A stretch of 64,000 nucleotides of DNA from Psammoneis japonica (GCA_008632985.1 QPGO01000044.1:248001-312000), one strand, 5' to 3'. Counted from the first letter of the stretch, positions 4,085-56,425 are shown. The notes: generated by a model from the sequence alone, not told the origin. Numbers and translations: made by a program.

Positions 4085-4311
4085 ACAGTGCTACAGCATT
4101 TCAATGGGAATCATTCGAAATTGTCGCGGGAGTCATAATTAGCATTTTACATAAGGAAAAATACCAAATCGTGTAGAAATGTACACAATGTCATACGAGA
4201 GGGTGATTAGAACTGCTAACTTTTCGGGAACTCAATTGAAATGTCATCTTATCAAAGGCATTTTGATTTACATGGTGAAGAGCAATGCCTTTGATCAGAC
4301 GACATTTCAAT
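4085..4311. repeat. Dispersed non-coding repeat, left part; interrupted by the ISL2EU-like element and continuing at 9270-9400; uninterrupted inverted copy at about 50960-51253
   Basis: 4101-4311 joined to 9270-9335 aligns colinearly with the reverse complement of about 50985-51253. Confidence 0.85.
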
Positions 4312-5519
4312 GGGTTTGCGGACTTTCAAAAAGCCGGTGCACCATCGGGTCATCTTTTTTCTTTTCACAAAAAAAAACATTTTTTGCATCCCGTCACTGC
4401 CGCTTCACTGCCGTTGCTTGTGTTGCCAACAGCAAGGCCTTTTCTGCTGATGCTGTCTGTCATCCACCACCCACATTTGTGCAGTTGTTGTCTGCAACAT
4501 GGGAGCGAAGGACAGGAGCAAAATGTCTTTCACAAACTTGCTTGATGGCACCCGCTTGCCACAGCTTGGAATGATTTTGCATGACATTGCACTCCAATCC
4601 TCCGCCGAAAACACGCCGAGTCGCAACCCATGTGATGTGCAACAAAGTGGGTGGCAGTCCTGCTCATCTTTTCCACTTTTTTGATTGCTTTTTTGGGGTT
4701 GATGTGGACTTTGCAATCGTGTTTGATGGAGACTCTTGTCATCACTCGAAGTGCACCACAGTCAAATGATCGGCAGATCAAAAAAAGGTCAGAGTCCAGG
4801 CAACCTAAACAAGAGCAACACACTCGCAGAGTTTGAGGAATGGCAGAACAGCAACAGAACTGGAAAAGGAAAAGGATGAGAGTCTCAACAAGAGCTTGAA
4901 ATTGAGGGAGACTCAAAGTGTTGGTGGAAGCAAGAGAACAACCGGTTTCATCCTCAGTTTGTTGCTGGTGTTTGTGACCTTGTGAAGAAATGGGAGGACT
5001 CTAGAATCAAAGCAATGGTTGCAGTCATGCAGGCTCACCAAGTGCTTGCCAAATTGGTTCTTGACAGATGTGCCAAAGTGATTGTTGGCAATCACAGTGA
5101 TTTCCCCGGCATGCATTGGTGGCAATGTTGTTTTGATCCCCGTTTTCACAAGTGTGAAGTTTGCAAGAAGCAAGTCAATCATGTCACACCATCAAGCAGA
5201 TTCTTTTCTGTTCTTGAATGAGCCATTGAAAGTGGTCCAATTTAAAAAGACAGCATTGCTCCAGCCAAGCATGCAATGCTTGACAGGCATTCACTGTGAC
5301 ATTGTTGCTCAATTGCTGTTTGTCTCAAAAACAACACTTGTGTGGGTGGCGTTCCCAATGTGGCTGCCACTGAGCTGAGTGCAGTCATTGAGGAACACAG
5401 CTGCAGTGGCAAGTGCAACAAGCTGCTTGGAGCTCTTTCTGACAAGGCAAAAAGAAAGTCAAAGAAGAATGAGGCTGAGGTGGGGGGTGTTGTCAAAATG
5501 CACTAGAAACTTTTGATGC

Positions 5520-6890
5520 CATGATGTGCAAGCCTGCAAACTTGGTTGGCCAAAATGGACCCCACAACTGCCTTTGTGGAAGGCCAGAGAAGAGTCTGCA
5601 TTGGCATTTGGAAGCATTTGTGGAAGATGACAATGATGTTGTTGATGGGCCTGCAGTGTTGGAATGTGCCAGTCATTCAGTTGGCAACGATGGAAAGCAT
5701 GTGTTCCTTGAAGTTGAGGGGTCCTTCAGTTGTTGCAGGGACAGTTGCTCAAAGGTCCTTTGTAAATTTTGTCACATGGAGTCAGACAAGAAGAAGTTTT
5801 GTTTTTGCTGCTTCCTTGAACACAATGTTGACTTGTCCTTTGATGGACCAATGATGTCACACTTGGAGCTCAAAGAGCACCACCTCTGTGCTGTGGGTGA
5901 GAAGAAGCTTTCCAAGGTGGAGGAGGCAATCAAAGGGAAGGTTGCGCATCCAACAAAACCAGCCAGTGCATTCACCAACAAGGAGCAGCTTAAGATGCAT
6001 TTGGCACTCAATTTTTCCAATGGAGGCCGTTTCTTGAGTGATCCATGTCTTTCTGATTAATCAGCAGTTGGAGTTGTAAAGATGAAAGATGCTTGGTGCC
6101 TTGGTGGACTGTTCAAAGGATCCAGAAGGAGCTCCGCGGGATGGTGCTGCAAAGAAGGAACATGCAGCACACAGTGCAGTTCTGACTTTGATTCAAAAGT
6201 TTGTTGAGGGGGACCACATGCTGACAATGGCATCCGAACATTGAAACAAACTGTGCGGCATGTGGTTGATCCAAAGACACCATCTTCACTGAGTGCCCAA
6301 GGACAAGTGTGTGAATGTGACAATGAGATTGCCTTGGCTCTTTCATCTGCAGTCCATGCCTCCATGAAAGGTGACAATCATGATGGAGCCATTGTCTTTG
6401 CAGAAAATGCATTGATTGCAGCTTCTTGCAAGTGTGACTCAGGGCCAGCAGAAGTGGATGACCAGCACATTTGTGTTCATGTTGCATCCAAACTGTGCAG
6501 TCCTGGTGTTCTCTTGCTTTTTGACAGTCTGGCCAAGCGCATTCTTTGCAAGTTGGTTTGCAGATGCAGCAAGCAAGTCAGACCCATCATTTGACAGTCC
6601 TGACAACTGTGTTGCATTCTTTGATCCCATCCAGTTGCTGGCACAAGCAAGTGGACAATTGGGTGCACCTGCCACACAATGTGCAACATTAAAGGAACAC
6701 TTGTCAGAGCTGAACGTGGGTGCCAAGAAGGACAAGATGGCACCTTGGCCATCATGCACAAAGGATCTCTGTCCATTGAAGGATTTAGTGTGTGTGTCTG
6801 CTGTGGCAAAGGCAAAGGGTGCCATTTGTAAATCTGTGATGGACTTGGGCATTGTGGCAGATGACAATGATGATTCAATGTTTTGAAGCT
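5520..6890 (+). pseudogene. Accessory ORF remnant of the ISL2EU-like element (SWIM zinc-finger type)
   Basis: VHASMK...LIAASCKCDSG...HICVHV resembles the CxC...CxH SWIM motif; the frame is broken by stops and frameshifts. Confidence 0.5.
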
Positions 6891-7449
6891 CCTTGTCCTT
6901 GGATGATTCAAGTCACTCATTGGATGACTCCAGCTTTGTTGACAAGAGCAACCTCTTCATTTGTCCCCAGCAACAACCAAGCTGCCTCTTGATTGACTGT
7001 GCTGATGAAGCAGTGTCACCTGCAATCAATGCTCATTTGCACACCAATGGACTTCCTGGTGACAAATGTCAAAGCGCACTTTGTTGAAGCCGGCTGGAAC
7101 AGCTTTGTCAGCAACAAGCTTCTGAAATGGCCAAGCACTTCTGCCAAGATAGATGGTGGTGCAGCAATGGCAAAGCCAGCACAATCATGCTCAAAAGAAT
7201 GGCATGAAGCACTCTCAGAATGTGAGCAAAGACAAGAGAAAAGAGGCAGCAACCAACATGGGAGCAGGCAATGCAAGACATCAGACAAAAAGGAGAATGA
7301 GCTTCTGGAATGAACCAACTCAAGCAATGCTGCAAACAACAAGTCTGCTGTCAAGCCACCAAATGAGAGCAAACCTTGAAAGAAAAGGCAGAGTGGCCAC
7401 TGACGCACTGTTGCAAACTGCCCATTCACTCAATGCACAAAGTTCAAGG

Positions 7450-9100
7450 TTGTGACGATGCATCCAAAGCCGCTTCCTGCAAATGCCAGTCAGGTGCAAA
7501 AAAAGAGGTTTACAAAAAAGACTTGGCATCACAAGAAGTTCCTTGACAGTTGTGGGGATGGGAACAGAAGGATGTCAAGAAGACTGAACCTGACAAGGAC
7601 CATCGCATTTGTTCTGAGCATGTCAAGGATTGCATCTTGATTCCAGTGAGTGTGTTGCACAAAAGATTCCAGCCACTTTGAGTGATGGATCCACTGTTTG
7701 CAAGAAGAAGTTGCCTTCCTTTGCCTTCACCAAGAAGTGTGCAAATGCAGTTGGCACAAAGTCCCATGCAATGACCCTTCTGCAAACTCACTCAGGATGT
7801 CCCTGGACTGCTGAGTGGCAAGTGAGTTGCTCAAAGAGAGCATCAACAACAGTGTGAAGGTGACTCCAAAGCAATCTTCTCACACAGTTTGCCCCCCCCC
7901 NCCCCCTGCTGACCCCCCCTGCTGAACAATGTGCAACAACCACCGACGGAATGCAAAGCTTGTTGTTTTCAAACATTCAACAAAATGCCACAGATGAATC
8001 TCCAAATGTGTGGGAAATCAATGCTGCAGTTTGCAAGGAAGCTGGTCATCCAGCTGCAGCTGCTCCAATTCCAACCAAGATTTTGCCTTGGCAACAAAAG
8101 AGGCAATGGGAGAATTGGGACAAACCAAGTCCCACCATGTGCAAAGCAGTGTGCAAGTCAAAGACTTGACAGCAGACAATGTCAAGCGTTGCACTGGATT
8201 CAGCAATGCATCTGCAAATGCTCTCCTGTTGCATGGTGGCTTGTGATGGTGACATTGAAACATTCAGCAAAACAGTTTCATGCTTGATGCTGATGGAGGA
8301 ATGGGTCCTTTGCTTTGAGTTTGTGTGCAGGCATGCAAGCCAAAGTGAGAAAGACAAGACCAAGGAGTGGGGTGTGTCTGGCAAGACTGTTAGAAAGATC
8401 CGCAACTTCAAAGTGAATCTTGTGTTGAGATCAAAAGAACAGTGGGCCAGCATGTGCAACATTTGAGGAAGTCAGGGAGCTCCATGATCTGAAATGGAAT
8501 GAGCAATGCAGTGATGAGAGAGTCATCTTTTGGGACAACACTGGCTGGAGTTGAAGTGTCCAAATCATCTGATCCTGAAATGCAACACCTCACATGGTCT
8601 TTGCATCACTGTGTCAATGTTGCAAAAGGTGGCATGTCAGAGCAGCTCTGTGGGTGGATGACTTCATTTGACCTTTGGTTGGGAGGAACAAGTGACAAAG
8701 AACACTTTGAAAAGAGTGAAATTTTGGAAGGGCCGAGGCTGTTCACTGTTGGTGACAAAGTGTTGAGAAAAATTGTTGCTTTTGCAAATGTGCTTGACCA
8801 AGGACAACAATGTGATCTCACAGCTTGGCAAAAAGGAAAGCAGCTGATCTTGCAACCAATCTTCAAGCCAAGCAGCCAAAAGTTCAACACACAAGAGGTG
8901 ATCCTGTCTGCAGGACTGGCCACAGATTGTTCAGGAAATGAACAAGGTGCAAAGGTTGTGAAACACTTGGCCTTTCTGAAGGTTGGCCTTCATCACTGGT
9001 CAGACGTCAGTTTTTTTTTGCAATGTGTGGCTTGCTTTTGGATTTCAGACAAACTTCATGTGTAAATCCGCAATGCTGTTGATGCATCAGAACCACTGAG
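7450..9100 (+). pseudogene. DDE transposase remnant (DDE_Tnp_4 / Harbinger-ISL2EU type)
   Basis: RVIFWDNT, NVAKGGMSEQLCGWM...LWLGGTSD, NVLDQG (cf. ILDKGY), ATDCSGNEQG (cf. DRSGNERA). Confidence 0.7.
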
Positions 9101-9457
9101 CACCAACATGTTCCATTTCTTGCACCGGCAGCCAGCAATTGGTGTTCTCATTTAGCTGGTTTTGATCAGAAGTGACACGGTGGAGGAGCAACTTGTGTCA
9201 AAGTGACAACATCAAAATGGATGGCAGGACAGACAGTGCACACATGCTTTTTACAAAGCCCGCAAACTCATTGATTTCCCGAAAAGTTGACATTCGAATG
9301 TGTGCAGGTGGACAGACTGATGACAATCATTTCTGGTCCTTTTCCACACATGTTCCATGCAATGTGACTCTGAGAGCCACAATGACTGTCATTGGAGAGA
9401 GCCACTGCAATGGGCACTGCTGTTTGTGACCTTGATTGCCTCAATCTTCCCACACAC

Positions 9458-10032
9458 AATTCTGCACATGGGCAAAATTGTCAATTGACAGTTTTTTCTG
9501 ATTGATCTGATTAAAAAATCCCGTGCACCTGAGCACCAGAGTTCTGTGTAGAATGCTTGCCTGCAAGCAGGCGCTGCACAGCAATGCTGGGCATCACTGA
9601 TTGTGGCAACCGGCATTCAACTGCAGCTCTCCATTTGAATCCATGCCAGTGTTCCATGATGACAAACAAACAAGTTCATCTCCTTCATTTTTTTGTGAAA
9701 CAGGTGACACTTCCTTCCCAAACAACCAGCTGCAACTTCTTCACCTGTTGGGGCAGAAAACATTGCCTGTTCACAAAAGTTGATGGAGACAAAGTTGGTT
9801 GCTTGTCATTGCAGAGCACTGGCATGAAGCAAGACAGAGAGCCATGCTCAAATGCCAGTTGCCGCCATCAACAATGCCTCAACACATTGCTTTGTGTTGC
9901 TCAGTGTTGTTGCATGGCACTGCCAGCAGGCCAGTCATTCTGTGCAGATTGCTGGTGCTCACCTGCATGAATTTTTTAATCAGACCAATCGGAAAAAACT
10001 GTCAACTGACAATTTTCCCCTTGTGCAAAATT
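9458..10032. mobile_element. MITE-like element with long (~160 bp) imperfect terminal inverted repeats
   Basis: 9458-9620 is the reverse complement of about 9850-10032 (ggcaaaattgtcaattgacagttttttctgattgatctgattaaaaaatc vs attttttaatcagaccaatcggaaaaaactgtcaactgacaatttt). Confidence 0.7.
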
Positions 10033-10329
10033 CTGTCAACAGTGAAGTCTTTTTCTCATTTTGCCCTGCACTGCAATTGCAGTTGACAGAAAAACTTGAC
10101 AGAGACTGGGATTGTTCCCAGTTGACTGACAAAAACAGAGAAAAAGAGAGCTGCAAGCAAGAGCAGTGAACTGGGTTGTGTCATGGCATCAGCAAAGGAG
10201 TGAGACCATGTGATTGCTGAGATCAAGATTTGGCAATCTAATGGCAACAATTAGAGACAAAAGCAGGAGAACCCTTAGAAAGGACCATTGGGTGATTGCA
10301 TTTTTGATCCTGGACAATGAGTGAAGCAT

Positions 10330-11812
10330 TGAAGGAGCCCTGCACCAGCCACAAGGCAAAATTTGAGCACTCTGACTTGGAGAGCATGTGAAATTGACTC
10401 AATCTCATGATGATGGTGCTGCTCATGCCAAGAAGTGTCCTTCTTTTGATGGCACTCATGGCATTGAAGCATTGCTGTTTGTCGAGCATTGTTTTCATGA
10501 GATTGCTGTGAAATTGGAGTTTGCAACTGGTGCAGAGTTGCTTGACAATTTTGAAGAAGTGCTGATGGACACTGCTGAGGACAAGTGGACCAACATGACT
10601 GATTCAATTCCAGACCCTCAGAAAATGGTGGCATGCTTTGACAAAGAGACGAGTTGTTTTAATTTGTCTTGTTGTGACAATGAGGCATGTGATGCAATGA
10701 TTGAACACTTGCCAACCTTGAAAAAGCCTTTTAAATCTGAAGTGCAGGTGCACACACATGGCATGGAGATGTTGACACATTGTTCCAACAAGCTCCCAGG
10801 AAACACACCTCAAGTCAATGACGCCCATGATTTTTGACAGTTCTCCTCAACCCTGGTGTGAGATGTGCACAGAGCTGGATGTTTGACAGCTGGTGATGCC
10901 CTGGTGGAGATCATCAGTTGCATGAACAACAAGAAGTTGTTTTCAGACAAGGGAAACACCAAGAAACAAGATGTGAAGAGGAAATGAACTTCTCCCCATC
11001 CAATCAAGCCTCAAGACACAGCTGTGGCAATGGCACTCATGTCAAATTGGAGTCCAGATGCCCGGCACATCCCAGTCATGATCAAAGTGGAAAGGTTGCA
11101 TCTTAAATCCTGAGAGTCAAAATTGTCAACCAAGGATGAATGACCAATGTGGTCATGGCAGTCATGGCCATGGGGAGGGGTGAATCCCAAGGCTGTGGTG
11201 ATCCGGCTGGACAAGCTCCTCCAGTTGGCTGGCAGATGGAATCACACCACTTTGATGGTGACAGAGGGCCTCACAAGATGCAAGGTAGAATGGGTGTGAC
11301 CAAGGCAGTCATCATCCCCAAGGCCAATGAAGTTGGCACAGTTGACAAGGGACAGAAGTGCCAAAGTCAGAGCATGTTGCTCAATGCATGTGATTCTTGA
11401 GCATGGTGAAGAAATGGACAGCACTTTAGAGCATGCTGTGCTGACCCCAAAAACAAGAATTCCCAAACCATTGAACATGGCACCAACAATGTTGATGGCA
11501 GCCAGAACCATGCAGAACCAAGAGAACAAGTGGGTGCTGCATGTTCTTTTAGATTCTGGTGGCACTCACTCTTTTGTGCATTTTCAAGTTTTGCCCAAAG
11601 GAGCAAGCTTGATGATGAACAATGAGGAGCAAATGAATTTTGAAACAGCCAGCAGGACAGTGTGAATCTTCTTGTTACATTCTCATGAAGGATTTGGCTC
11701 CACCAGAGTTTGACAAGTCCAAACAAGTTGATGGCATCACGGCTCAAATGTTCGATTCACCATTCAAGTGTGATGTGACATTGGGCCAAGATTTTCTTGC
11801 TCAAGCCAGAAT
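10330..11812 (+). mobile_element. Ty3/Gypsy fragment (gag and aspartic protease), truncated and degenerate
   Basis: Gag-like FDGTHGIEALLFVE...NFEEVLMDTAEDKW; protease VLLDSGGTHSFVH and CDVTLGQDFL (cf. YDIILGRDFL). Confidence 0.7.
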
Positions 11813-12989
11813 TGTGCTGTGGAAGCATTGGTGTGCTGTGTGCTTGTTGTGGTGTTGTGTCCCTCAGCGTTCCCACCTGTTTTTTTTTTTTTGCAGAAAA
11901 AAATGTTTGCACATGGACGTTGGTGTGTGTCATGTGCAGCAATCAATGCTCACACATTGTTCATTCACTGCATTTCAACATGTCAAAAATGCAAATGCTC
12001 TGTGTGCAATGACCCATGCAACATGCAGAGTCCATGTGTGATTGCACACCCGCAAACATGCATGTTTGATTTTTCCAATTTTCCATGACTTGTCAAGATG
12101 CAATGACAATGGTGACTGCAAACACAATGTGCTCCATCAATGACCATGGGCTCACCACAATGCCAACACATGTCATTGTCATGCAATTTCACATGTCTGT
12201 GGCTCACTGTGCTTTGAAGTTGATTGATCACAGTGAAAACAGCTGAAATGTTCAACATTTGCCCATCACTTTTCGACCACACAAGTCAACAATGATCCCG
12301 TTACACTCTCACATGCCAATTTTACTGTGCACAAGTTCATGAGATGCAACATGCTGCTGATTGTTGTGGCCCTTCAAGCCAACACCATCAAAAAACCAGC
12401 GATGGCAGAGTTGCCATGGTGATGTGGTTTCTGTGGTTTTTGGCTGTGTGGCACGCTGTTTGCAGGGCCCCACCTGCAGCAAATTTGCACTGAAACTGAG
12501 TTGTGCTTGTCAAGTTAGTGTGGCTTCCACTGCATGCATCATGTGCCAACCATTCTCAGTGGTGGGGCCAGCAGCAAAAAAAAATTGTGACCCAGCAGAA
12601 AAAATGGCTCAGCTCAGTTTGAATGTGTTGTCCTTCAGCATTTGTGTGTCTGTGGAAAAATGCTTCTTCTGACCGGCAGCAGCAAAAAGCAAATCACAGG
12701 CTCTCCACTGTTGCTGCAGCAGAGCCAGAGCAAGCCAGTGGCTGCTGTGCTCTGGAGAGAGCAGCTGCCACTGGTGGCCAGCTCTGTGGCAGAGAGTGCT
12801 CTGCTCTGGCATCAGCCAGCTCTCAGAGAGAGAGAGGTTAAAAAAAAAACAGATCCAATTTTTAAAGTGCTGTCACTCCTTTGCCAGCTGCGCCAGCACA
12901 CCAGCCAACACCCACACTTCCAGTGCACCACATCAGTGCAGCTGAAGGGGACAAGAACTGGCTGGAAGGGGCGTCACCAGATGGTGACA

Positions 12990-13760
12990 CCCTGCCAAAG
13001 TGACTGGGGATGGAATGAGTGACACAAAGCATGGAGTGCTTTTCCTCCTCTTTGATGCTGGCTTTGAGGCACAGCTTGTCATGGCAATCCAGTTCACAAT
13101 CTGCAAAGTGCCATGTGACATGTGGTCCTCCAATGAATCCATGAGATCAGCTCTGTCTTTTGCAGATGCAGATGGCAGCAAGTTCAGCCTCAGCGGTGCA
13201 CTGTTGTGAAGATTTCCGTGTGCCCGCATTGTGTCCATGGACGTGCTGTCATGTTTCTCCCAAAGTTCCTGCCACAAGTGCTAAATGTGTGATCCCATCT
13301 AAACAGCCCACACCAGAGGTGGGCATTGTTGTGCAGCATTGTTCCAACAGACCTGGCTGTTGCAAGTGAAACTCCTCAAAGGTGTTCCACAAGGATGAAT
13401 GTTGGCCATTGAAAACCTGACGCTGTCCCATGTCTGGCTGTGCCCACCACAAAGGACAGAGCATTGGGGTCACATTGGTCTCGTGCATCATTTCATCATG
13501 GAACCATGCTTCTGGTGAGGATGAAAGGAGAAGGTCTTGCAAGGGAGACATGGTGTCAATCTCATCACAGCACTTGCGCAATCCCCAAAGAAAGGTGCGT
13601 CTCCAGGCTTCATTGTCTGGGCAACCAAGGATGTGATCTCTGTCATCCATTGGACTTTTGCTTGAAAGACATTGATGAGGGCAGAAGGGATTGCATCTGG
13701 AACATCCCGGAAAGGACCTGAAACAGTCATTTCATGATGTGTCATGTGACCAAACCGTTT
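12990..13760 (-). mobile_element. Non-LTR retrotransposon 3' ORF fragment, degenerate
   Basis: DDRDHILGCP...QRQVFNGQ.SSLW...WQELWEKH resembles the zinc-knuckle/Trp-rich C-terminus of diatom non-LTR elements. Confidence 0.55.
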
Positions 13761-14209
13761 GACAAAAAGTCTTTTTGGCTGAATCTTTTGTCAAATGCAA
13801 GTGTCACAAAAGAGCACCCCGGTCATTCACAATTTGTCCCTTCTACAAGACAACTCGTTGTTTCAGAGTGGACAATTTCAGACAAAGATTTGTGAATCTT
13901 AAACCACACAGTTTAGAATTCAAACAAATCTTAAACCACATGGTTCAAGATTTTGACATTTTCTTCAAGATTTTGCAATTTTTGATGACAACATGGCACA
14001 AGATTTAGACAACATGGCACGATTTTTGATGACATGGTTTGAGATTTTGACAATTTGGTTTAAGATTGACAAAGCTTTTGAGACAACAAATGACAATGGG
14101 GTCTTCGCCATTTGCAACAGGTCCCTCTGACTGTGCAAAGGGCTGGCCCCATGCAACATGCACTGGTTGTTCCCAATCCATTCCATTGAAAGAGTCGTTG
14201 TGTGCAAAC

Positions 14210-31334: not shown

Positions 31335-31336
<2 letters not shown>

Positions 31337-31367: not shown

Positions 31368-31368
<1 letters not shown>

Positions 31369-34696: not shown

Positions 34697-34799
34697 TTGT
34701 TCCAAATGAATGGCTTGAGCAGCGAGGCTTTATGATATGACCCGCAACAAAAAATCAGAAATGGACACTGAACCTGTGGGGGGGGGGACTCATCGCGGC

Positions 34800-36510: not shown

Positions 36511-36635
36511 TGAAAGCTACACAATGATGTATTTTGCACATCTTTACGGCAAGTGCTAAATAGGCTTCACTCCTCCCATGCAACCCTAGCACTAGGTAGA
36601 CAAGAACATTCCCCTATGCATTCCCTTTGTTTCGA

Positions 36636-44094: not shown

Positions 44095-44366
44095 TGACAG
44101 AAATTGAAGGCAAATGGCAAGAATTCAAACAATGACTCCTTGCTGCTGTCTAAACAGCAGATGAGTCTCCGCTCAGAGACCGTTGCAGGAGCCGAAAGAC
44201 GTGCAAGTCGGTGCAATCGGGCTGCTGTTGTCATTCTTGTGAGCCTTGTGGCTCGAAAGCAAACTGCATCGCGCGCGAACGCGCGGAACTAAAGCACACA
44301 AAACTGTGCACGGCAAACTAAACAGCGCGATTTCGCGCGCACCTGAATCCTGTTCAAATCCTGTCA
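44095..44366 (-). repeat. 3' LTR of the Copia element (272 bp)
   Basis: Matches 48781-49056 apart from four substitution sites and one 4-bp length difference. Confidence 0.96.
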
Positions 44367-44419
44367 CTCCCCAGTTTGCTTGAGGAGCCACAGAAACAGG
44401 TTCGACTTTGGATGGAATG

Positions 44420-47400
44420 AAGTTCCAGAACATGAGGGGGCGGAGAAGGTCCCAGACTTGGGAGTGACCCCAATGCTTGCTGAGAAAGTCAGCAGGGTTG
44501 CGGGAGCCTTCGATGAAGTGGAGCTCAAGGTGACCAGAGGCAATTGCCTCACGCACACGGTGGAACGACAGTGCGGTGTGTCACTTGTGTGACTTGGAGT
44601 GCGGGATGGTGGCACTGTCTACAACCGACTTGTTGTCACCGAACATGCAACTGACATTGCGGATCGGGATGCCAAGGTGGCGCAGGGTGATGCACAGGTC
44701 GACAATCTGCTCGACACAAGTCCTTGCGGCAACAAATTCAGACCCGCAGGTCGCAGTCTCCACGGTGGCTTGCTTCTTGGAGAACCAATCAGCCGGGAAT
44801 TTGTTGAGGAAGTGGAGCATTCCCATGATGGAGCATCCGGTGAGCATGCAATGGCACAAGTTTGCATCGACGCAGTGGGTGGCAGTGACGAACTTGCCAA
44901 GGGGCGGTGGAGCATCCTTCGGGATCATCTCCTCTGCTTCGCTGTGCATGGAATGCATCCATTCACAGGCCGGAGCAGGGAGATCCGAGTGGTCGGGCTC
45001 TTCCGTGCGAACGCAGAGAGCGCCATGTCGCATCTTGGAGAGGTGCCCACAGATGCGTTTGGCACGATCCAAGTGGCCTTGACGGGGCGCAGCTCGGAAG
45101 CTAGAGAGTGACATGACGGCCGTGGTGATGTCAATTCGACCAAGGGACACTGCCCATTGGAGTGAACCAACAAGAGACTGGAACTTGTGAATGCCATCGG
45201 GCCCCAGCAGTTCGGAAGTGTCCAGTTCGGGGTGGTCACCCTTCTCCAGAGGTGACAGGGCGTTGGTGGCAGGTTTCTCCCCAAACAGTCGGGTGCAGCT
45301 GTCGACCATGCGCTCGATGCACTTGCGCGGAGACAGGCACAAGGTGCCATCGGGATCCCGGGAAAAGTCGCAGCCCAGATGGAACTCAATGGGTCCCGCA
45401 CCCTTGAGCTTGAACTTGCACTTTTCCGCGAGAGTGTCGACGAAAGATTGAGGGTCCTTCACAGCAATGGCGAGGTCATCCACGCCGTTCCTGCGCATCC
45501 AAATGTCAGGTTCGGTGCGGCAGGGGAAGAAGCCTTCAGCTCGTGGGCAGTCGGCAAAGCGCTCGTGCCAGCGGAGACCGGAGCTGCGCAGTCCATGCAG
45601 GGCCTTGTGGATGACAAGGATGTGTCCTTCGAGTTTGCCAAATTCGGGTCCGGCTACAATGTAGAGCTTCTCCTTGGTGGTGGCTTCAAGGTGGGCATTG
45701 CCAATGTTGGTGGCCCATGTCTCCAACTCGTTGAGTTCGGCCAGGAAAATCATCAGCCGAAGGCCACGGAGGGAGACTGCTCCGGAGTAGACACCATCGA
45801 TGGGTACGTCCGTGAGGTGCCCATCGGCTGCGAGTCGTGCCTTGTGGCGACCGTCGTGTTTCATGTCGCACACCAGGTGCACTTGGATCTTCTTGTGTCC
45901 TGCAGGAGGAGTGGAAGACTCGAAGGGCCCGCAGTCATGGAAGACTTCGTATTCTTCGAGTTGGTCCATCTCGAGATTAGTTGCGTCTCCCCATTTGCAG
46001 TTGCCCTTGCGTTCGTCTAGTGACATGGCATGTTTGCAGTTCCGGGGAACTTTGCATCCGCACTTGCAGCGAGGTGCAGTGCAGAAGGAGCGAAGCTTGG
46101 CTTGGTTGGCCATGCGGAACAGCTTCTTCTGGTGCCTTGCGATGGTGCGGAACTGCTTCCAGCCATCAGTGTCGAGAAGTCCGTTCTCTCGTGCATAGAT
46201 GGCACAGGTGGCGGGGTCGTCCTTGGCGATGATGGCAAGAGGCTCGGACGTGATCTCCCCACTTTCCCATTCAAGCATGATGTTGTAGCTTGAGCTTTTC
46301 CAGGTTGGGTCATGAGGCTTCAGAGGTCCTTCGTGTGACACAATGCGTCGAAATTTCCAAACAGCAGTGTCTTCGTCTTCTTGCTCAATGTGATTCATGA
46401 TGTCGTTGCAGGCAAGGACTTCCTTGCATTGACCATTGTTGACAGAGCAGACGAACTCAGTGAGCTCGGGATTGCCGTTCACTTTCCATTCATGGTCTTC
46501 GACGGCCTTGACGATGCGAGCTCTGTGGCGTTGTCCATCCTCTTGTGGCTGCATGAGGAAGGTGCGTCCGATGATGTCTTGCGGATCGAAAACTGGCATC
46601 TTGGGTGTCCTGATCTCCCCATCAGGAGAATCGACGGGGTTGTCATCATGGTGAGATTTGATGATGGGTTCAGGTGGCTCCCCATCAGGAGGATCAAGAC
46701 GCAGGTTTTGAACGGCAGGATCGGTGGTGGCGGATCATACGTTGGACCAGCAGAGGATCTTCTGAGTCTCGTCAGAGAGAATCTTGAAGGTCATCTGGTG
46801 GCCGACGTGCTCAGCAATGCCAACAAAGCGTCCACGCAACTCACGGGATTTGGACAGCCAATCGGAGTCATCGAGGTGGAAGTGCACGGGTTCCCACCAG
46901 TGAAAGCGAAGCAATGGGCTGATGTCCGGGGTGGAGCCAGTGAGAGTCTCGAGGGGTGTGCGCCAGTGGAGACGTGGGGACGCTGCATGGTTGAGCATGA
47001 AGCACACGCACATGAGCGCCAGCAGCCATGTGTGGGCAGGCGAACCGAAATGATCCATGACAGTGTTCGCCATGCACTTCACGGTCTGGTGTCGACGCTC
47101 GGCAAAGTTTTGGTGTTGCTGGTGAGGCTCACTTTGCCAGCTGGAGATGAAGAGGGCTCGCAGGATCCCGAGCACCTTGTTGCTGATCTCAACTTGAGCA
47201 CGGTCGCTGATGAGTTTGGATGGGGCACCACACTCACGGATCTGATCCTCGAGTGTGTTGACAAACTCTTTGTCCGTTTTGGTGCCGCAGACGTCAGTGA
47301 CGGCAGACTCGGTGCCAACAAACAGTTGGGCGCTGGTGCAACCAGAGTCGACGGCCGGGGTGTCGGCACAAACGGTGTCAGTGGCGATGGGCTCGTTGCG

Positions 47401-48780
47401 GCGGTGCACATTAAGGGCGGGGTTGGGCGATTTGCAGGCCTTCCTGAGGTGTGCACCGGTGGGCATGCGGGCGCACTGCGTGGTGCAGTCAAAAGTACGA
47501 TGGACCGCATCGGCAGGGAGGAAGCCAAAGCAAGGCCAAAGAGACTCGAAGGGGGGGTCCTTGGGCTGCACAGTGTGCTCCGGGGGCGGAACGTCGTCGT
47601 CCTTGGGGTCAATCGCGTGTAGATGACACTCGTAGAACACATCGTCGTTCGGAATGAGGTGATCATCGAGGGCGGACGCGTGATCGGCAGACAAGGAAGC
47701 GGACATGATGGTCTTGTTGACAACGACACGATGACAGCAGTTGCCGCATTCGTCAAATGGGTTGGCAGTGGGATCGTCCTGCAGGTCAGAGATCGCGTCG
47801 CACCACTGGTCGTCGTCAGTGACAGAGTGATCAAGGACGGAAGGATCCCATGTGTCATCACCGGTGAGGATGACATGGGGCAGGGTGTCCCATTCGGCGT
47901 CAGTGCAAGGTCGCATGGCAACATGAGGCAGGCCGCCCTTGATGTCAATGGGGATGACACAGCCATCAGGGGTGGCAATGCGTTGCAAGCCGTTGGGCAC
48001 CTTGACAGAGCGATCGTTGACATCCTGTTTGCACCATTCGAGCTGGCCGCAGGAATGAATGGTCTTGCCCTTTCCCGCATGTGTGCACTGATGGAGGATG
48101 GCGATGACGGGACCACGCTGGGTCTCAATGATGGCACCAGTGGTGACAATGGGGATGTCCACCAATTGATGGTCGTCAATGCCCTGAACGTCGACTTGGC
48201 AAGAGGTGCGTGCAATGACGCGAACGTCATCGCCAGCAATGCCGCCGTTGGCCCCACGATCGACTGGAGCACCAGCGCGTGTGGAGCGATGAGCAGAGGC
48301 AGAGTGAATGACATTGTGGTTGTCAACGCGGCGGTGAGTGCGGCCGTCAAGTTCTGTGTCATCGGCAGGAGCTGGCGAGGTAGAGGGAGCGGCGGATGGC
48401 CCTGGTCGACTGGCGTTGGGGGCTTGGTTAGGAGACAACAGACGTTGCAGATCACCGGGTGGCAGTGGCTTGCGCTTGGTGAGGTGCTCCAGGATGGGAT
48501 TGTCCAAAGTGGCATCCACATTTGGAGCGGGGTCACCAGAGTCAGCAGGAGTCTTGTTGGACAAGTTGACATCACCGTCACTCCCAAGGCGTTGGTCGTG
48601 AAGGTTGGCCGCAACGGACTCATGGCAGTTGCTGGCTCGCGGGTTGCGGGGAGGCGGACGAGAATGCTCGAGGATGATCGCCTTGGAGGAATGGGGCAAC
48701 GAATCCCAAATCCGTTGGTGGTCGGGAGGGAGACGTTTCCATTGGTCACCAGTGAGGCTGGGACCACGGGTGCAGGCATC
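44420..48780 (-). pseudogene. Copia gag-end/pol polyprotein, inactivated
   Basis: ORFs 46735-48699 and 44581-46599 plus the RNase H tail. TGA stops lie at positions normally Arg (SNV*SA, HK*HTALS). The segment before the RT YVDD motif is missing (WMRRNG-VDDLAI). Confidence 0.92.
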
Positions 48781-49056
48781 TGACAGAAATTGAAGGCAAA
48801 TGGCAAGAATTCAAACAACAACTCCTTGCTGCTGTCTAAACAGCAGATGAGTCTCCGCTCAGAGACCGTTGCAGGAGCCGAAAGACGTGCAAGTCGGTGC
48901 AATCGGGCTGCTGTTGTCATTCTTGTGAGCCTTGTGGCTCGAAAGCAAACCACATCGCGCGCGAACGCGCGGAACTGAAGCACACAAAACTGTGCACGGT
49001 AAACTAAACAGCGCGCGACATTTCGCGCGCACCTGAATCCTGTTCAAATCCTGTCA
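48781..49056 (-). repeat. 5' LTR of the Copia element (276 bp)
   Basis: Direct repeat of 44095-44366. Confidence 0.96.
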
Positions 49057-50066
49057 GGACCTTGCACTGCTGAACTGTGACATCGACAGTTTTTTGAATT
49101 GAGTTGTGTGTCGCGCACGCACATTTCTACGTGATTTTGGCAAAATTTTGCATCATTTTACAGTGCAATTGTCGGGCGATCCACTCAACAACTTTTAATG
49201 TTTTTTTCTTCTGCGCCATTCTCGAGTGTCTCAAGAATGGCACAGGGCAGGCACGTTGTCCAAAACTTTGAGTGCAAACAGAGACACATGTGCCACAAAC
49301 TTGGCCATGTGTTTTGTGTTGAAGACAAATGTGTCCATTGACCAGAGTGCGAACTGCAGAGCTCGCACGTGGAATTCCACGGGGCAAATGTCACAAAAAG
49401 TCCCACCTGGGGCTGGAACCCGTCTGGCCACAAAAAGAGCTCGAATTTCAATTGCGACGTGTTCCAGCCGCACGTGAACCAAATCGTGCACTAAAACGAC
49501 ATTTGCGCGATTTTTGCGCGGTCCCTAACTTACGATCGAACTTTCACCACCAAAAGTATAGATTTATACAAATATAAATGTTCTGCAACACTAACAAGAC
49601 TCGTGTGAGTATTGCAATATCATTGTTATTGTGCTGTCTATGTTTTTCATTGCGTTAAAAGATTCGTAACACACGGATGATTTTCGGCGAAAATATTGCC
49701 GTTATTTGGATGTTAACTAAATATATCTTTCTACGATGCTACTTGGTAGGTTTTCTACCTACAAAAAAATCTCAGTATAAATCTACTGACGTACAATCAG
49801 TATTGAGTCTACTGAGGAAGTTTATGATACATATCCCATGAGGATTTGAATACCCCTCAAAAAACTATATAAATGTCCATACTCTAGAAGCTTATAAAAG
49901 TCAATCCGTCTAAGTATTTTTATTTTAAAATGCTATATACACTAAAATATACATAAATTACATTCAAAATCCGATTGTCGTTTTGTGCGTCACCTGGGAC
50001 TGGAACACGTCTTGCAATCAATTGCAACAGTTGATTGTGATTGCGACCTTGGCTCTTTCCCGACAA

Positions 50067-52375
50067 TCAGGTCATGACGGGTTCCAGTCCTGGGCGGGAC
50101 TTTTTGTGACATTGGGCTCGTAGAATTCTGCGTGTGAGCTCCGCAGCAAAATTGTCAAGCAATGGACATGTGGATGATCGCCAACAGAAAAAGAGGCAAT
50201 TTTGCGAACGCATCTCCTCCTCCACACTTGAAGCACACATCAAAGAATGCAGCCAGTGCATTTTTGTTGTCATGAGTGCAGACAACAGAAAGCCTTTGGC
50301 TTCGCAAAACAGGCAGTGTGGAACAAATTTTTGTGACAGAACACACAGAAATGTGTGCCAAAACATGCGACAGATGACAAAAAATGATTGTGTCACAGTT
50401 CAGTGGTGCAAGGTCCCACCCAGAGCTGGAACGCGTCTCATTGCAATCAAGTTTGCAACAGCGATTGCAGTCAAAGTGAGGCTGATTGCAGCCGATCCCA
50501 GCAATTGGCCAACACTGCGGGGCGCTGTTTTGCCAACAGCCACTCTGTTTTGGCAATGGTGGATGTTCAGCTGTGTGCAATCTGGGAACAATTTGAGAAG
50601 CGCTTCGCGACAACCCTGTTCAGACCGTCAAACAGAAATTTTTTTGTTCAGATTCTAAAATGTGTTTCGGGGTGTTTCTCACTTTTTTGAATTTGGGTGT
50701 GTGTCTTTGCAAGACCTTGGAAATGTCAATGACATGCAAAACCCTGAGAGACCAACATGAATTCATCTTTCATGTGGACCACATGCATTGTGCACCGGCA
50801 GAAAATCCACCGCATGTCAGCTCACTCAGCAGCAATTCCATGTGTGTTTTACTTGCATCTCACACACGCACACACGCCTGCACAGTCCAATGACCACGCA
50901 CACGTGCATGAGATGATGTGTCAATGGGAATCATCCGGGTCCTGAGAGTCATCACGTAGAAATTGTGTGGGAGAGCACTAAAAATGATTGTTGTCAGTCT
51001 GTCCATCTGTCCATGTGCGAATGTCAACTTGTCGGGAAATCAACTGAAATGCTGTCTGATTGACAGCATTTTGATTCACACAGTGAAGGCCAATGCTGTC
51101 AGTCAGACGGCATTTCAATTCAGTTCCCGAAAAGTTGTTAGCTCCAATCACTCTCTCGCATGACATTGTGTGCATTTCCACACGATTTTGTGTTTTTCCT
51201 TGTGCAAAAGATCAATTGTGACCCACGCGACATTTTCAAATGATTCCCATTGACTCGAATCACATTTTGTTGAAACGCCACCTTTGCTCAAACACGTCAT
51301 GTTTGAGAAAACGGGCTCAATGTTTGAGGAATTGCTCGAACTTTGCGCAACTTTGAGCACTTGCTCAAACTTGCTGCTCAAACTTGGCAAGTTTGAGCAA
51401 ACACTCAAACTTGCACAAAGCTTGAGCAAATGCTCAAACATGTGAAATTGATGCCACCGGTGCTGCACCAGTGTGAAACCGCTGTGCAGCACTGGCCTGC
51501 CACACCGCACATGCTGTGCGCACTGCGACTGCTGCTTTCACTGCATGCAGGTGTCAGCACAAATCAAGTGCAATGGAAATGAGGTGTCAGCCGTCAGTGA
51601 CAAACAACAAAATCACAACCATCACACCATGGTGACACAAAAGATGATTTTTCTCTACGACAACACCTTCAAGAAACCCAACATTCCATTGAAAGACATG
51701 TGATGCAAACTCATGCACGAAAATGTTGAAAGTTCCAGCAGAACAGGCTTGTTGAGGGGGCTGCGGGGACCAACAAGGAACAGTGTCACGCAACAACATT
51801 TTGTCTTTTGTTTCAATCAAAAACATTTTTCAAAGCATGCCTTGGCATTGACATGTGCTAAAATGTCAACATTCACTGCAAATTGCCAAAGCGCCTTCGA
51901 TCGCTCCAAAGAGGAAATTTTCCATTCATTGCCAGTTTGTGCCAGGCTGCATGGAAAAGTGCAGCCGACATGCTCCAGCTCCAGGTGGGACCTTGCACCA
52001 CTGAGCTGTGACACAATTGCTTTTTGTCATCCGTTGCATGTTTCGCGTGCACATTTCTGCTTGTTTTGTTGTGAAAAATTGTTCCACACTGCCTGCTTTT
52101 GTGAAGCCAAAGGCTTTCTGTCATCTGCGTTCTGCATTTGTGACAACAAAAATGCACTGGGTGTGTTCTTCAACGACTGAAAAGAACATGCCCGGACATG
52201 CTGTGAAGAATGTGCTTCAAGTGTGGAGGAGGAGATGCATTCGCAAAATTGCCTCTTTTTCTGTTGGTGATCATTGATGTGTTCATTGCTTTGTGATTTT
52301 ACTGCGGAGCTCGCTCGCAGAATTCTGCGGGCCCAATGTCACAAAAAGTCCCGCCTGGGACCACAACCTGTCAGC
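50067..52375. mobile_element. Non-autonomous element with ~400-bp inverted terminal repeats; a third copy of the same repeat (44065-44094 + 49057-49430) is the Copia target
   Basis: 50067-50450 is the reverse complement of about 51960-52375 (gggcgggactttttgtgacattgggc vs gcccaatgtcacaaaaagtcccgcc). Confidence 0.75.
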
Positions 52376-52399
52376 CATCACATTTTCTCCCTCCAACAA

Positions 52400-55300
52400 T
52401 CAACTGCATGCACAAACAAACAAGGAGCAAAGTGCAATGACAGGCAATGGCAATGCAACGATGTCATCATGATGCAAGCAGGGAGGAGACGCAAGCGTCC
52501 AGTGGCAAGAACAGCGGTGCGAGCAACCCAACATCCAACATTTGGGCAAGGCCATGCTTGCGGCCATGGCTTTTGCATTGCGGCCGTGGCCGCCATGGAC
52601 TCGGGGCAGAATCAGCCCTTGTCATTTGGTGGCCACAGCAAAGGTGAGAGCATCCAAGCAATGGGACAATTTTTGGTTGAATGCATCAACGACGAGAGCT
52701 TGGCCATCTTCGTTGATTCGAACGACAAGGAAATTGTCGTGCAAAAGTGCTCTGAGGGTGTGATGATGCGTTCATGCTCACGCTCTGTTGCCGCTGTTTC
52801 CAATTTTCTGTTGGAGTGGAGTGCACAAGAAACCAAAGTCAGTTTTTTTTCTGCTCTAGATCTCTGTCAGTGCTGCACTCTCTGCCAGCAGCAGCAATTG
52901 TGGTCAAGCAATTCAGCCCACTTGTCAGTTTGTTCTGCTCCAGATGTGTCAGCACTGCACTCTCTGTCAGCAATTGCAGTCAAGCAACCACACTTTGAGC
53001 CACAGCACTCAGTGTCTCTAAAGCAATGTGATCCACCCCCTTGCAGATCATGCCCAGAAACAGTTCACTCAACAACAGACCCATCCGAAGTTGCACCAGG
53101 ATTCATCCGCAGAGCACTGGAAATCAGGATCTCAGATTTTACCGGGTCGTCAAGAAGCACAGATGGATGATGCCCGGCTCTCACTTCATTGGCTTCACTG
53201 ACATCGGCAAATGGGTGAGCATTGGTGTCAACCACTCCAAGCATTTCTCCAGCTCCAATCACCCAGAGACCTGTCAATGAGGCACTCATGCATTTTCATC
53301 TCTGGGCTTCTGTGAGGGCGAGAAGGGGTGACCAGATCCAGCGGGTCTTGGCTTGAACCACCAGCAGGAGGACAATGGAGAAAGCTGCCCTCATGAGGAC
53401 ATGGATGAATGGCCTGCCACAGTTCCTCAGATTTGGATGGTCCACGGGCTGCAGCAGGAAATGATGCACCAGCTGTGGCACCTCTGTGATCAGTTGCAAC
53501 CTGCTGGACGGTGGGCGGAACAGCGTTGGCAGCCCCACCACCCCGTTGTGGTGCAGCCACCCCATCAAAGGGGTTCACCACATTGCTGGGTCCAATCTCA
53601 AATGACGCTTGAGGCAATCCAAACTTGTCCTGCTTGTGACACCCAAACTGGGATTCGCGCCATTGATGGCATTCATGTGACCAAGCATGCGTGCCATCTT
53701 GGTCGCCAGCACAGAGAATGGCTTTCAACAAGACACAACAAAAGACATGAGTTAAGAGAAGCAGAAAAGAGCACTGCAAAAGCACAACACTGCGTGTGAT
53801 TGCTTGCTTTTGTTGCTGCATCGCATCCACAGTGGCAAACTGGACAGAGGCAGTCTCCATTCTCGTCCAAGCCGTGACGTTCTCCAGTGGCATCATCAAT
53901 GCATTTGAGCAGGCATTCTGCAACAGGAACTTCTCCAGTGATCAATGGCCATTTCCATTTGGCTCATCAACAGTGGAATGGCCACAGTGGTGACAATTGC
54001 GGTTCACCTCGTCCTCCGGTGTCGATCCTTCAAACAGAAGCTCTTTGGCCATCAGAGACACCACCTTGGCCTGTTCTTCATGCAATGCTGTGTGGTGAGC
54101 TGCAGTTTTCTTTGATGACACAAGATCCTTCACTTCAGCAGTGGCCTTTGTCACTGGGTGTGCATGCCCGGGCATGAGTGGTGCGCAGCTCTTTCTTCCA
54201 CACGCAATCAAGTTGGCACACCATTCAATTCCAGCAACATGCTGTTGCAGTGGGAACAGCTCCAAAGATGGTCTTGTTTAGAGATGCAACAAACAAAGGA
54301 GTGCATTTCCAGTGTGCTTCAATGATGGGAGCATTCTCCATGCCAATCCTCTTCTCGACTTCCGCTTTGTTTGCAATGAAAATCACGGTGAGCTTCTTCT
54401 TTTCTGCCACCATGCCACAGCTCGGTTTCCTCAGCTCGTCAAGCATTTTGTTCTTGGAAGGTCCTTCCACATCACAATGCTTGACATCACATCATGTTTC
54501 GGTGTTTGACTCGCATGCATGGACGCAGTTGTGCATGGCGTTTGTGGCCATGGTCGATCTGCTGTTGCGGCATGTTTTGTTTTGCCCAAGTTTTGCCAGT
54601 CAAGCAGCGCGCAGGAAGATTGTGTGTCTTTCTACGTGGCCTGGTGCAAACAAGCTGATGAAAGGAAATTTTCCTCTTCAGGGCAATCAAAGACACTTTG
54701 CGCACGAAAAGTGACAAGTGTTTGGCAATTTGCAGTGTTGTTCCAAGTCAAAAACATGTCAAATGGATCATCAGCAAGTGCCGGCATTAGACCATCTTCA
54801 TGTTGTCGTCACAGCCCCGTGCGTCATCGTGCCAACATGGATTTTTTGTTTTTTGCACATGTTTGAGCAATTGCTCAAACTTTCATGACCGTTGAATGTT
54901 GCTCAGTGTGGCATCCATTGTGATTGCGCGCACGTGCGTTTGAGCAGTTTTCCCACATGGTGCTGGTGGGTTCTTGTGTCGACCATCAACGCACGCATGA
55001 GCATGAATCATCATCTGCTCTGCCGCTCTTGTTTGACCAGCTGGTTGGTTGTTGACCCCAACCACCACCAGTGGAACAAGATGAGACCAATGTCAGAGAT
55101 CTTCATTTCAAGAACAGCACATCACATTGTTCAAAAACTTTCATTGTGCAAATGCCACATTTTGGGCATGTCCAAGGAACAAAACCAGCACAAACTCGAG
55201 CATGCTTCTTGCATGTGTGCGCTCAACACACCCTGCCCAGAAAATGTCAGGGAGTCGTCTCTCCCATCTGTTGTGCCACTCATCACATCAATTGTGGAAA

Positions 55301-56425
55301 CCCAGTGTGCTGCCACTCCCTCCAAAAGTTTGCACCTTGTGTCTTGTGCTGCTCTGATTTTTTTCAAACAACTGCTGTTGACACCATTTTGAGATTGTTT
55401 GAGTCATGCTTTGTCAGACCCACATGATGTGCTGCAAGCAACCTCAGCTCTCTGCTCAACTGCCACAAAACTTCTGTGCACAGCCAATGATGTGTTCAAT
55501 CTTGCAGACCAGGATCTGCTTGAGGTGGGATTGTCAAGTGCCAGCCGTCATGCAAGTGCCAGCTCTCTCATGCTGTCAAGCTGGCTCATGACCACACCAC
55601 TTCCTTCTGCTTGTCAAACAAGATTGTTTTCCACTGTGGCTGACTGAACTTGACCTTGTTGCTGTCTTCATCACAAGTGTCTCTTGACAAAAATGCCAGC
55701 CATGATGTGCTCCTTTGTCATGCTCACAAAAGAGTGCCACCCTGTGCAACAGAAGCTTTTGCAAGGCTGTCAAAAGTTGCACACAACAATCTTGACACCA
55801 CATGGCACAACTCTGCTGCAAGATCTTGTGGCATTGCAGCAGCAGCAGTTTTGCAATGAACTGCTTCATCCAACTGAGTGTTGCTCCTGCTTCACTCTCA
55901 AGCTGTTTTCACTTTCAAGAAGAAATCAGTGGAGCAGCCAACATCTTTTCTGTGCAGTCATTTCTCTTCTGGCATTTGAACATGCAAGTGCACTTGCACT
56001 TTTGTGCAATTCAGGGCTGCTGTGGAACCTGCTCAGCAGCAAAAGAAAAAAAAGGCGTGCGGCCGTGGGGGCTTCTTTTGTTGAGACACAAATGGGTTTT
56101 GCATCAGCAGCAGGGGGGCTGTGTGGGATGTGAGCACAGTGCTGTGCAATGCATGGTCATGGGTGGGCCCAGTTGTTGTTGTGAGAAATAATCCCATCAC
56201 CATGACATGGAAGCACGCTGAAATTTGAGAGACATTTGCAACAGAAAAAAGACACTGGAAACAAAAAGGACGGAGCGTTCTTGGATCTGGTGGAAGATCA
56301 ACACAAGTGACAAAAGAAAAAACTTGGAAGACTGCTCAAAATGCAAAAGGATGCTAGAGACAAAAAAGAAGAACATCCAGCAGTTAAATGAAGCCACAAA
56401 GGAATCAACAATTTTCTGCTGTGCA
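52400..56425. other. Unidentified TpA-depleted block, probably decayed mobile or viral-like coding DNA
   Basis: Same dinucleotide signature as the identified TEs; protein-like fragments but no motif I can assign. Confidence 0.4.

Follow-up and report, generated by a model that had tools for sequence, protein, structure and literature searches.

Evidence for in-place conversion of TpA to TpG and CpA in transposon and satellite DNA of the diatom Psammoneis japonica

Results

Five blocks nearly free of TpA lie among ordinary genes

The window analysed here is a stretch of 64,000 nucleotides from the diatom Psammoneis japonica (GCA_008632985.1 QPGO01000044.1:248001-312000; positions are counted from its first letter), in which ordinary genes lie beside five blocks of sequence that have lost nearly all of their TpA (TA) dinucleotides. 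Mapped at 200-bp resolution, the blocks extend over 4270-21404, 22367-24600, 34866-36417, ~42400-49492 and 50010-56189. Block 1 consists of nested, decayed transposable elements (TEs) and holds 83 TA and 144 CG in 17,135 bp, TG and CA together making up 94.6% of its pyrimidine-purine (YR) steps. Block 2 is an unclassified repeat remnant (6 TA, 39 CG) and block 3 an unclassified remnant between two genes (6 TA, 30 CG); no convincing terminal inverted repeat (TIR) or target-site duplication (TSD) was found at the edges of either. The fourth block contains a TA-poor repeat (block 4a, 42500-44094) that hosts the insertion of a Copia retrotransposon, and block 5 has 16 TA in 6180 bp.

In a dinucleotide table compiled at 1-kb steps, the observed/expected (o/e) ratio of TA was 0.00-0.13 at 5-21, 23-24, 35-36, 44-49 and 50-56 kb, compared with 0.5-0.8 in gene regions, the window as a whole being mildly TA-poor (o/e ~0.6). 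TG and CA rose within the blocks to o/e ratios of up to 1.5-2.4. The window contains 55 stretches of more than 250 bp without a single TA, the longest measuring 1401 bp, and every one of them falls within the blocks. The edges are abrupt: TA per 200 bp drops from 16 to 0 at 22.4 kb and, at 50.0 kb, from 25 to 1. In the blocks taken together (33,658 bp, or 33.7 kb), 147 TA were counted against 1349 expected from the rate in the control (gene) regions, which confirms the five near-TA-free, TG/CA-rich blocks of the original prediction.

The shift is restricted to YR steps. The pooled o/e ratios of TG and CA were 1.73 and 1.79 in the blocks and 1.21 and 1.18 in the controls, and that of CG was 0.40 as against 0.95. 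The remaining 12 dinucleotides differed between blocks and controls by 0.17 at most, AA/TT standing at 1.23/1.22 versus 1.19/1.13 and AG/CT at 0.95/0.92 versus 0.93/0.93. Moreover, YR steps were about as dense in the blocks (242-263 per kb) as in the controls (239-248 per kb), as would be expected if TA and CG had simply become TG or CA.

TA was lost in place, after insertion

The Copia element (44095-49056, minus strand) has TG...CA ends, long terminal repeats (LTRs) at 44095-44366 and 48781-49056, and the 5-bp TSD GGACC on both sides, the left copy forming the last five bases of block 4a (44090-44094) and the right copy lying at 49057-61. It is young, with a TA o/e of ~0.1, a CG o/e of ~0.8 and a GC content of 55-59%. 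Its two LTRs differ at six positions and by one 4-bp indel in 277 aligned columns. These differences comprise two TG-versus-CA doubles, one TA-versus-TG and one CA-versus-TA, with no other substitution, so that all four differing substitution sites sit at inferred TA sites. As the LTRs of an element are identical at insertion and these now differ at TA sites, TA was lost independently in each of them after the element had inserted.

The coding sequence records the same change. A frame free of TA cannot encode tyrosine, and the Copia pol open reading frame (ORF) remains open with its tyrosines replaced by cysteine or histidine and the region of the YVDD motif deleted. When pol was compared with 60 homologues (identity no higher than 63%), the 23 conserved tyrosine columns read Y in 4 cases, C in 10, H in 6, F in 2 and W in 1, while tryptophan (10/10), proline (26/26) and glycine (37/39) were retained. 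Across 434 conserved columns, a single reversal of TG or CA to TA undoes 26 of the 76 amino-acid differences, a CpG reversal undoes 17, and each of the other transition contexts only 2-6. Likewise, at 51 tyrosine positions of the whole Copia polyprotein, 5 are Y, 18 are C and 15 are H.

Related copies that still carry TA give the direction of the change. A copy of a repeat that straddles the left edge of block 1 (4101-4323, plus strand) keeps its TA up to 4269, and its homologue in block 5 (51031-51253, reverse) reads TG or CA at 12 of its TA sites. The DNA of the window was also found in three sequencing runs, all from one sample and one study and with no platform on record; contigs of two of them, here X1 and X2, were used for comparison. 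Forty differences between X1 contigs and the window are listed, with a further 349 not among them. Over 41.5-48.1 kb, where other copies are aligned, 10 of the 20 listed have TA for TG or CA in the window, 4 form two TG/CA doubles, 3 are of CpG type and 3 are other changes. Over 36.2-41.1 kb, which is mostly genes, the 20 listed comprise 1 of TA type, 5 of CpG type, 11 transversions and 3 other transitions. A partly converted repeat at 41400-42499, with 3-9 TA per 200 bp, shows the same direction, other genomic copies (X2 contigs included) reading TA where the window has TG or CA.

Doubles of TG against CA, the mark of independent conversion in the LTRs, recur between other related sequences in the blocks: 16 in the LTR pair of a Gypsy-type element, 11 in the two ends of a TIR element, and 60 among 265 scored differences between satellite monomers. 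The aligned amino-acid transporter paralogues outside the blocks (1165 bp) have 4 among 172 differences. The LTR pair, the tyrosine columns and the TA-bearing copies together bear out a change from TA to TG or CA that occurs at the DNA level and after insertion, takes place only in TE-derived blocks and affects both strands equally, as had been proposed from the composition of the window.

Rate, strand and sequence context

The young Copia LTRs contain ~8 inferred ancestral TA sites, of which ~60% of copies have been converted. This corresponds to ~10 changes at ~16 TA site-copies compared with 0 at ~520 others, a ratio that we estimate, from this one element, to be at least ~150-fold. The same LTRs are rich in CpG and show 0 CpG differences against 4 differing TA-derived sites (6 mismatched positions), and in the old blocks the CG o/e has fallen to 0.06-0.28. 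CpG decay is a separate and slower signature in the same blocks; loss of CpG of the kind produced by 5-methylcytosine (5mC) is present as a second signature and fails to explain the loss of TpA.

TG and CA are equally common and alternate along the blocks at close to chance (runs-test z of -0.3 to +3.5), and no same-strand tracts of TG or CA were found in the blocks by this test. Within the Copia element of the window, Tyr>Cys and Tyr>His are similarly balanced (18 to 15).

Among the 147 surviving TA, TTAA has 4.6 times and CTAA/TTAG 4.1 times its share in the controls. ATAT is absent (92 in the controls), and ATAG, ATAC and GTAC are reduced to 0.12-0.18 times, these comparisons assuming that ancestral contexts resembled those of the control regions. 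Conversion is thus best at RTAY and worst at YTAR (R, purine; Y, pyrimidine). In pol, all six tyrosine codons preceded by G have been converted, and three of the four survivors are preceded by C. Since TpA is self-complementary, the preference can be assigned neither to the base before T nor to the base after A.

The converted sequences are largely selfish elements

An old Gypsy-type LTR retrotransposon (14233-19220, plus strand) lies in block 1, with LTR remnants at ~14233-14556 and 18851-19220 that are 68% identical. Its pol fragments (16965-18771) contain 0-1 Tyr, and Pfam recognised fragments of RVT_1, Integrase_H2C2 and rve at 17.0-18.8 kb. The same block contains 4.8 copies of a 177-bp satellite (19789-20644). 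In the Copia element, Pfam detected the reverse transcriptase domain RVT_2 at 44.6-46.6 kb; a TA-poor flank (49057-49492) follows the element on its right. Block 5 contains an element with long inverted ends of ~360 bp (50075-50437 and 51967-52373).

Of 83 block ORFs of at least 110 aa, six matched Pfam families, one of these matches being spurious and five TE-related; RVT_2 alone exceeded Pfam's own cut-off. No non-LTR retrotransposon or transposase domain was detected by Pfam among these 83 ORFs. The claim that all TE classes are affected holds for Copia and Gypsy elements, the 177-bp satellite and the long-TIR element, and lacks a detected domain for the non-LTR and transposase-bearing classes. 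The selfish origin of the targets is apparent from the Copia and Gypsy domains, the LTRs, the TSD, the satellite and the TIR element, with blocks 2 and 3 unclassified.

Near the left edge of block 1, a segment of ~4.95 kb (4324-9270) is a later insertion that splits a repeat into two halves (4101-4323 and 9271-9364); the copy at 50950-51253 runs through without this interruption. About 13 bases overlap at the junction and may represent a target duplication. The insert itself gave no Pfam match. The edge of block 1 at ~4269 lies within the repeat copy, ~55 bp before the insertion.

Duplicated sequences outside the blocks are spared

An Aa_trans amino-acid transporter gene (684 aa) and a fragmentary upstream paralogue (27400-28640 and 28939-30993, minus strand) do not carry the signature, as noted above. 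One 273-bp stretch of these paralogues is 97% identical amid ~77% overall, and looks like the product of gene conversion. A 380-bp tandem repeat of 96.5% identity likewise retains its TA. Two arrays of ~340-bp repeats, 62-73% identical and 32 kb apart (633-2495 and 33355-34482), have normal TA; one 380-bp unit of these arrays is duplicated at 96-97% (1310-2059), and the arrays probably encode a repeat protein.

Between the fourth and fifth blocks stands an unconverted TA-rich and AT-rich island (49490-49985), with up to 25 TA per 200 bp and a GC content of 31-34%. The summed depth of X1 contigs, which is not a copy number, reaches 6514 at 49672 and 2118 at 49923 and suggests that the island is itself repeated in the genome. 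Direct repeats of 22 bp stand on either side of the island (49405-49426 and 49991-50012), and X1 contigs join across it (49395 to 49991, and 49449 to 50013). Within the window, no second copy was found of the island or of the TA-rich gap at 21.4-22.4 kb, and Rfam and tRNA scans of the window, the island included, gave no matches.

In the original prediction the system was called RIP-like, after the repeat-induced point mutation (RIP) of fungi, in which any duplicated sequence is a target. As a statement about duplication as the trigger this does not stand, for the Aa_trans paralogues and the 380-bp repeat outside the blocks are free of the signature and the TA-rich, high-depth island has been spared. 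Because the same DNA shows decay of CpG to TpG and CpA, we infer that what is targeted is chromatin in a silenced, methylated state, and not duplication in itself.

Agreement with the sequencing runs

Contigs of X1 have a word depth of ~57 in unique DNA. They cover single-copy, TA-free parts of block 5 (52332-53137, 53822-54372 and 54787-56000) at depths of 56-64 with 2-10 differing letters. X1 is presumably an accurate-read run, as noisy long reads would not yield such contigs. Over unique gene DNA at 36001-39600, an X1 contig differs at 13 places in 3.6 kb, mostly by transversions and CpG transitions, which would fit the other allele of a heterozygous diploid.

One contig of X2 skips a 133-nt GT..AG stretch (38286-38418), which is an intron, and on the strength of that contig X2, labelled 'DNA?', is suggested to be an RNA library. 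X2 cover over the Copia element is next to none, which does not amount to evidence that the element is silent.

The same signature occurs in other public data

The same Copia lineage is represented by 80 metagenome loci, and in all but one of them TA is normal (79 loci, o/e 0.43-1.00). The exception, L069, is a contig of 2766 bases from an unrelated assembly; it belongs to another Copia family, with 65% nucleotide identity to that of the window, and contains 3 TA. At 45 tyrosine positions it reads Y once, C 9 times and H 17 times, and it has CVDD for YVDD. The locus closest to it among the 80, L077 (73% identical), has kept its TA, with a CG o/e of 0.23; its TA sites read CA in 18 cases and TG in 8 in L069.

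Two public proteins are partly converted, P0065 (Y 12, C 6 and H 4 of 28) and P0113 (Y 17, C 1 and H 6), and 34 other homologues have 0-1 Cys/His at tyrosine positions. Furthermore, 8 of the 150 best library representatives have Cys/His at 38-87% of tyrosine positions, compared with a median of 6%.

Discussion

A probable TpA-specific process acting on transposon and satellite DNA

The results make it highly probable that an in-place, post-insertion process specific to TpA changes A:T to G:C in transposon and satellite DNA of this diatom. In such a process, A:T pairs at TpA would become G:C, a change from TpA to TpG on one strand reading as TpA to CpA on the other. It would run much faster than background substitution, choose the strand at random at each site and stop within ~200 bp at the block edges. 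The agent would be an enzyme acting on DNA, and its role may be one of genome defence. In the chemistry that we favour, tentatively, as the most likely, adenine at TpA would be deaminated in DNA to hypoxanthine and read as G at the next replication.

A close parallel comes from mutation-accumulation lines of the chlorarachniophyte Bigelowiella natans, described in a 2026 preprint. There, 231 of 302 new single-nucleotide mutations fell in integrated giant-virus and virophage regions, and 230 of these 231 were A>G or T>C, all stated to lie at TpA (Mettrop et al., bioRxiv 10.64898/2026.01.13.699255). The rate was ~6e-7 per site per generation, ~1000 times that of the rest of the genome, and the effect was seen in some lines only (bioRxiv 10.64898/2026.01.13.699255). 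The genome contains 124 clusters depleted in TpA and enriched in CpA and TpG, low-TpA coding sequences are enriched in reverse-transcriptase and DDE domains, and the authors propose an ADAT2-like adenine deaminase (bioRxiv 10.64898/2026.01.13.699255).

In B. natans and in the diatom alike, nearly the only changes are A>G or T>C at TpA, giving TpG and CpA, and they occur in discrete regions of foreign origin while the rest is ordinary. Here, the change at TpA is seen in the LTR pair, in Tyr>Cys or His at 16 of 23 columns and in the shift of YR steps alone, and the confinement to discrete regions beside ordinary genes is seen in edges sharp to ~200 bp. The host, however, is a diatom, and thus a stramenopile, whereas B. 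natans is a rhizarian, and instead of a giant virus and virophage the process has hit LTR retrotransposons, a satellite and TIR repeats. Conversion is close to saturation in the diatom (TA o/e 0.02-0.1), in contrast to an o/e of 0.45 given for the nucleocytoplasmic large DNA virus region of B. natans. A coincident decay of CpG is a further difference from the published description, and for the RTAY-over-YTAR preference we found no mention in the paper's abstract, results or discussion. Finally, the rate in B. natans was measured live, whereas the diatom process is known from fossil sequence alone.

Several observations weigh against the process as proposed. The record in this diatom is a fossil one, with no new mutation observed directly, and the self-complementarity of TpA makes A>G and T>C look alike in sequence. 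A deaminase moving processively along a single strand should leave tracts of one strand sense, and these are absent. The sharp edges obey no single simple rule of targeting: the ~500-bp TA-rich island at 49.49-49.99 kb is untouched inside TA-free DNA, and the repeat copy at 4101-4268 keeps its TA unconverted; the link with methylation comes solely from the CpG decay in the same blocks. The runs share one sample and study, so read support is not independent of the assembly, which X1 may have fed. In the library comparison, the query was itself converted, biasing the search towards converted matches.

Alternative explanations

Of the alternatives, an attack on thymine survives best. A TET/JBP-type oxygenase or some other thymine-modifying enzyme would mark T at TpA in silenced DNA, and a product such as 5-formyluracil, which occasionally pairs with G, would give T>C. 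As TpA is self-complementary, all of our observations fit T>C equally, and a strand taken at random at each site is what one would expect of an enzyme recognising a symmetrical site in duplex DNA. Thymine at TpA is known to be modified, as 5-hydroxymethyluracil in dinoflagellates and as base J in telomere repeats. However, modified thymine is without any evidence in this analysis, and its mutagenicity would have to be high, with ~60-90% of sites converted and no other substitution in the LTRs. The authors of the B. natans study favour deamination of adenine (bioRxiv 10.64898/2026.01.13.699255). Taking these points together, we regard an attack on thymine as unlikely.

Error-prone repair in heterochromatin by a Pol-eta-like polymerase, misinserting opposite T at WA (W, A or T) and so giving A>G, had been raised in the original prediction. 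Pol eta is known for A>G changes at WA in immunoglobulin hypermutation. WA includes AA, yet the o/e ratios of AA, TT, AG and CT are the same in blocks and controls and only TA is lost; nor is there an excess of transversions or indels between the Copia LTRs. With AA and AG unchanged, this candidate is disfavoured and has to be considered very unlikely.

An artefact, in which modified bases or polishing errors cause TA to be called as TG or CA, would find some room in the fact that the available runs share the sample of the assembly and that their platform is not on record. Against it, X1 contigs have a word depth of ~57 and agree exactly over long distances, and they match the unique DNA that is free of TA; X2 contigs carry repeat copies of the same kind. 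The signature also turns up in a metagenome contig with no relation to the window, in public proteins that stem from other assemblies and in Illumina mutation-accumulation data of another alga. Moreover, a miscall on both strands would mix in TA and CG rather than produce clean TG or CA. We therefore hold an artefact to be highly improbable.

In a scheme of editing before integration, the RNA of the retrotransposon would undergo A-to-I editing, or its cDNA would be deaminated, and the changes would become permanent once the copy had been reverse-transcribed and integrated. The preference of ADAR-type enzymes for a U on the 5' side of their target A favours such a route. The same 5' preference is raised in the discussion of the B. 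natans preprint (bioRxiv 10.64898/2026.01.13.699255). Nevertheless, the two LTRs of a single insertion differ at TA sites with opposite strand senses, the satellite, the TIR element and the repeats flanking the Copia element are converted too, and the converted zones are contiguous blocks and not single elements. In addition, pol would be dead, with the YVDD region deleted and tyrosines lost, so that converted copies could not seed new ones. A mechanism limited to retroelements before their integration is rejected on the LTR differences and the converted satellite and TIR element, and has hardly any probability left.

That the elements simply avoid TA by composition or selection, as the mild scarcity of TA across the window (o/e ~0.6) might suggest, is refuted by the tyrosine and LTR tests, given normal TA in 79 of 80 related elements, Cys or His at conserved tyrosine positions of the window's pol, and random TG/CA outcomes that extend to non-coding LTRs and satellite, and its probability is close to nil.

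Relation to known mutational systems

In-place conversion at TpA shares with RIP the destruction of transposons by dense transitions with a dinucleotide preference, which skew dinucleotide indices. RIP is premeiotic, and its enzymes are RID and DIM-2. Its changes, from C:G to T:A and chiefly at CpA, create TpA and reduce the GC content, whereas the diatom process is the reverse and raises GC. The fungal direction (CpA>TpA) is rejected here, TA being lost and CA and TG gained, and the prediction of a process opposite to RIP and distinct from CpG decay is upheld, with CpG decay as a second, slower signature in the blocks. RIP is triggered by duplication, while in the diatom the duplicated genes and the high-depth TA-rich piece were spared.

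TadA-type deaminases resemble the proposed process in that the edited A is read as G and a T or U is required just before it, and the better conversion of TAY than TAR would be compatible with the preference of TadA-like enzymes for a U-A-C loop. They act on RNA or single strands, whereas the change here is a heritable one in chromosomal DNA, restricted to certain domains and without same-strand runs. Deamination of 5mC likewise produces TpG and CpA from a palindromic YR step, and does so in the same blocks, but it consumes CpG and not TpA and is much slower. With APOBEC3 the process would have in common a host-driven deamination that inactivates retroelements in a dinucleotide context. APOBEC3, however, acts as C>U on minus-strand cDNA before integration and leaves strand-coordinated G>A, in contrast to the A:T>G:C changes seen here, which are post-integration, lie on both strands and include non-retroelement repeats.

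A literature search found no report of TpA hypermutation in diatoms, most subscription journals being outside its reach. The view that the phenomenon had not been described before stands for diatoms to that extent and does not stand in general, the same signature being reported in the 2026 B. natans preprint. Three things are new here: a diatom as host with TEs as targets, the preference for RTAY, and a rate clearly distinct from that of CpG decay. To our knowledge, before 2026 no process was known by which cells turn A:T into G:C at one particular dinucleotide and only in selected regions of the genome. The diatom adds a second lineage, one of ecological dominance, and another class of target, and the occurrence of the same signature in an unrelated alga suggests a widespread defence by DNA editing.

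It is possible, although doubtful, that an enzyme guided by chromatin and common to stramenopiles and rhizarians edits the adenine (or thymine) of duplex TpA in silenced regions. If so, the system would be a mirror image of RIP that disables transposons and integrated viruses by removing tyrosine codons, raises GC and abolishes TAA and TAG, and the RTAY preference together with the random strand would be the footprint of a natural A:T>G:C editor of double-stranded DNA. Leads to the enzyme are deaminases that occur only in stramenopiles and carry SAM and 1-22 Tudor domains as fusions, LmjF36.5940-like deaminases (PMC3239186) and DNMT4 of diatoms, a relative of fungal RID with no known function (PMC9998398). 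The gene responsible could be found by comparing genomes with and without TA-free repeats, and a natural enzyme of such activity would interest the base-editing field.

Annotation and other features of the window

There are also consequences for annotation. TA-free DNA has neither TAA nor TAG and therefore gives rise to long false ORFs on both strands, and its Pfam matches are lost, so that too few transposons are annotated and too many false genes called. In the Copia element (44095-49056), ORFs of 386-672 aa overlap on both strands without a family match, and pipelines are likely to call them as genes. An 81-bp tandem repeat (40799-40961) lies in a 442-aa ORF at 39743-41071 (minus strand), which likewise matches no family. 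A single N is present at position 7901, inside block 1.

Downstream of a Ccdc124-like gene lies a Gly/Arg-rich (GGT/CGA) repeat tract (57640-57925). The window also contains a Maf1 gene, the nearest named relatives of which are those of diatoms, led by Seminavis robusta (51%) and followed by Chaetoceros, Helicotheca and Attheya.

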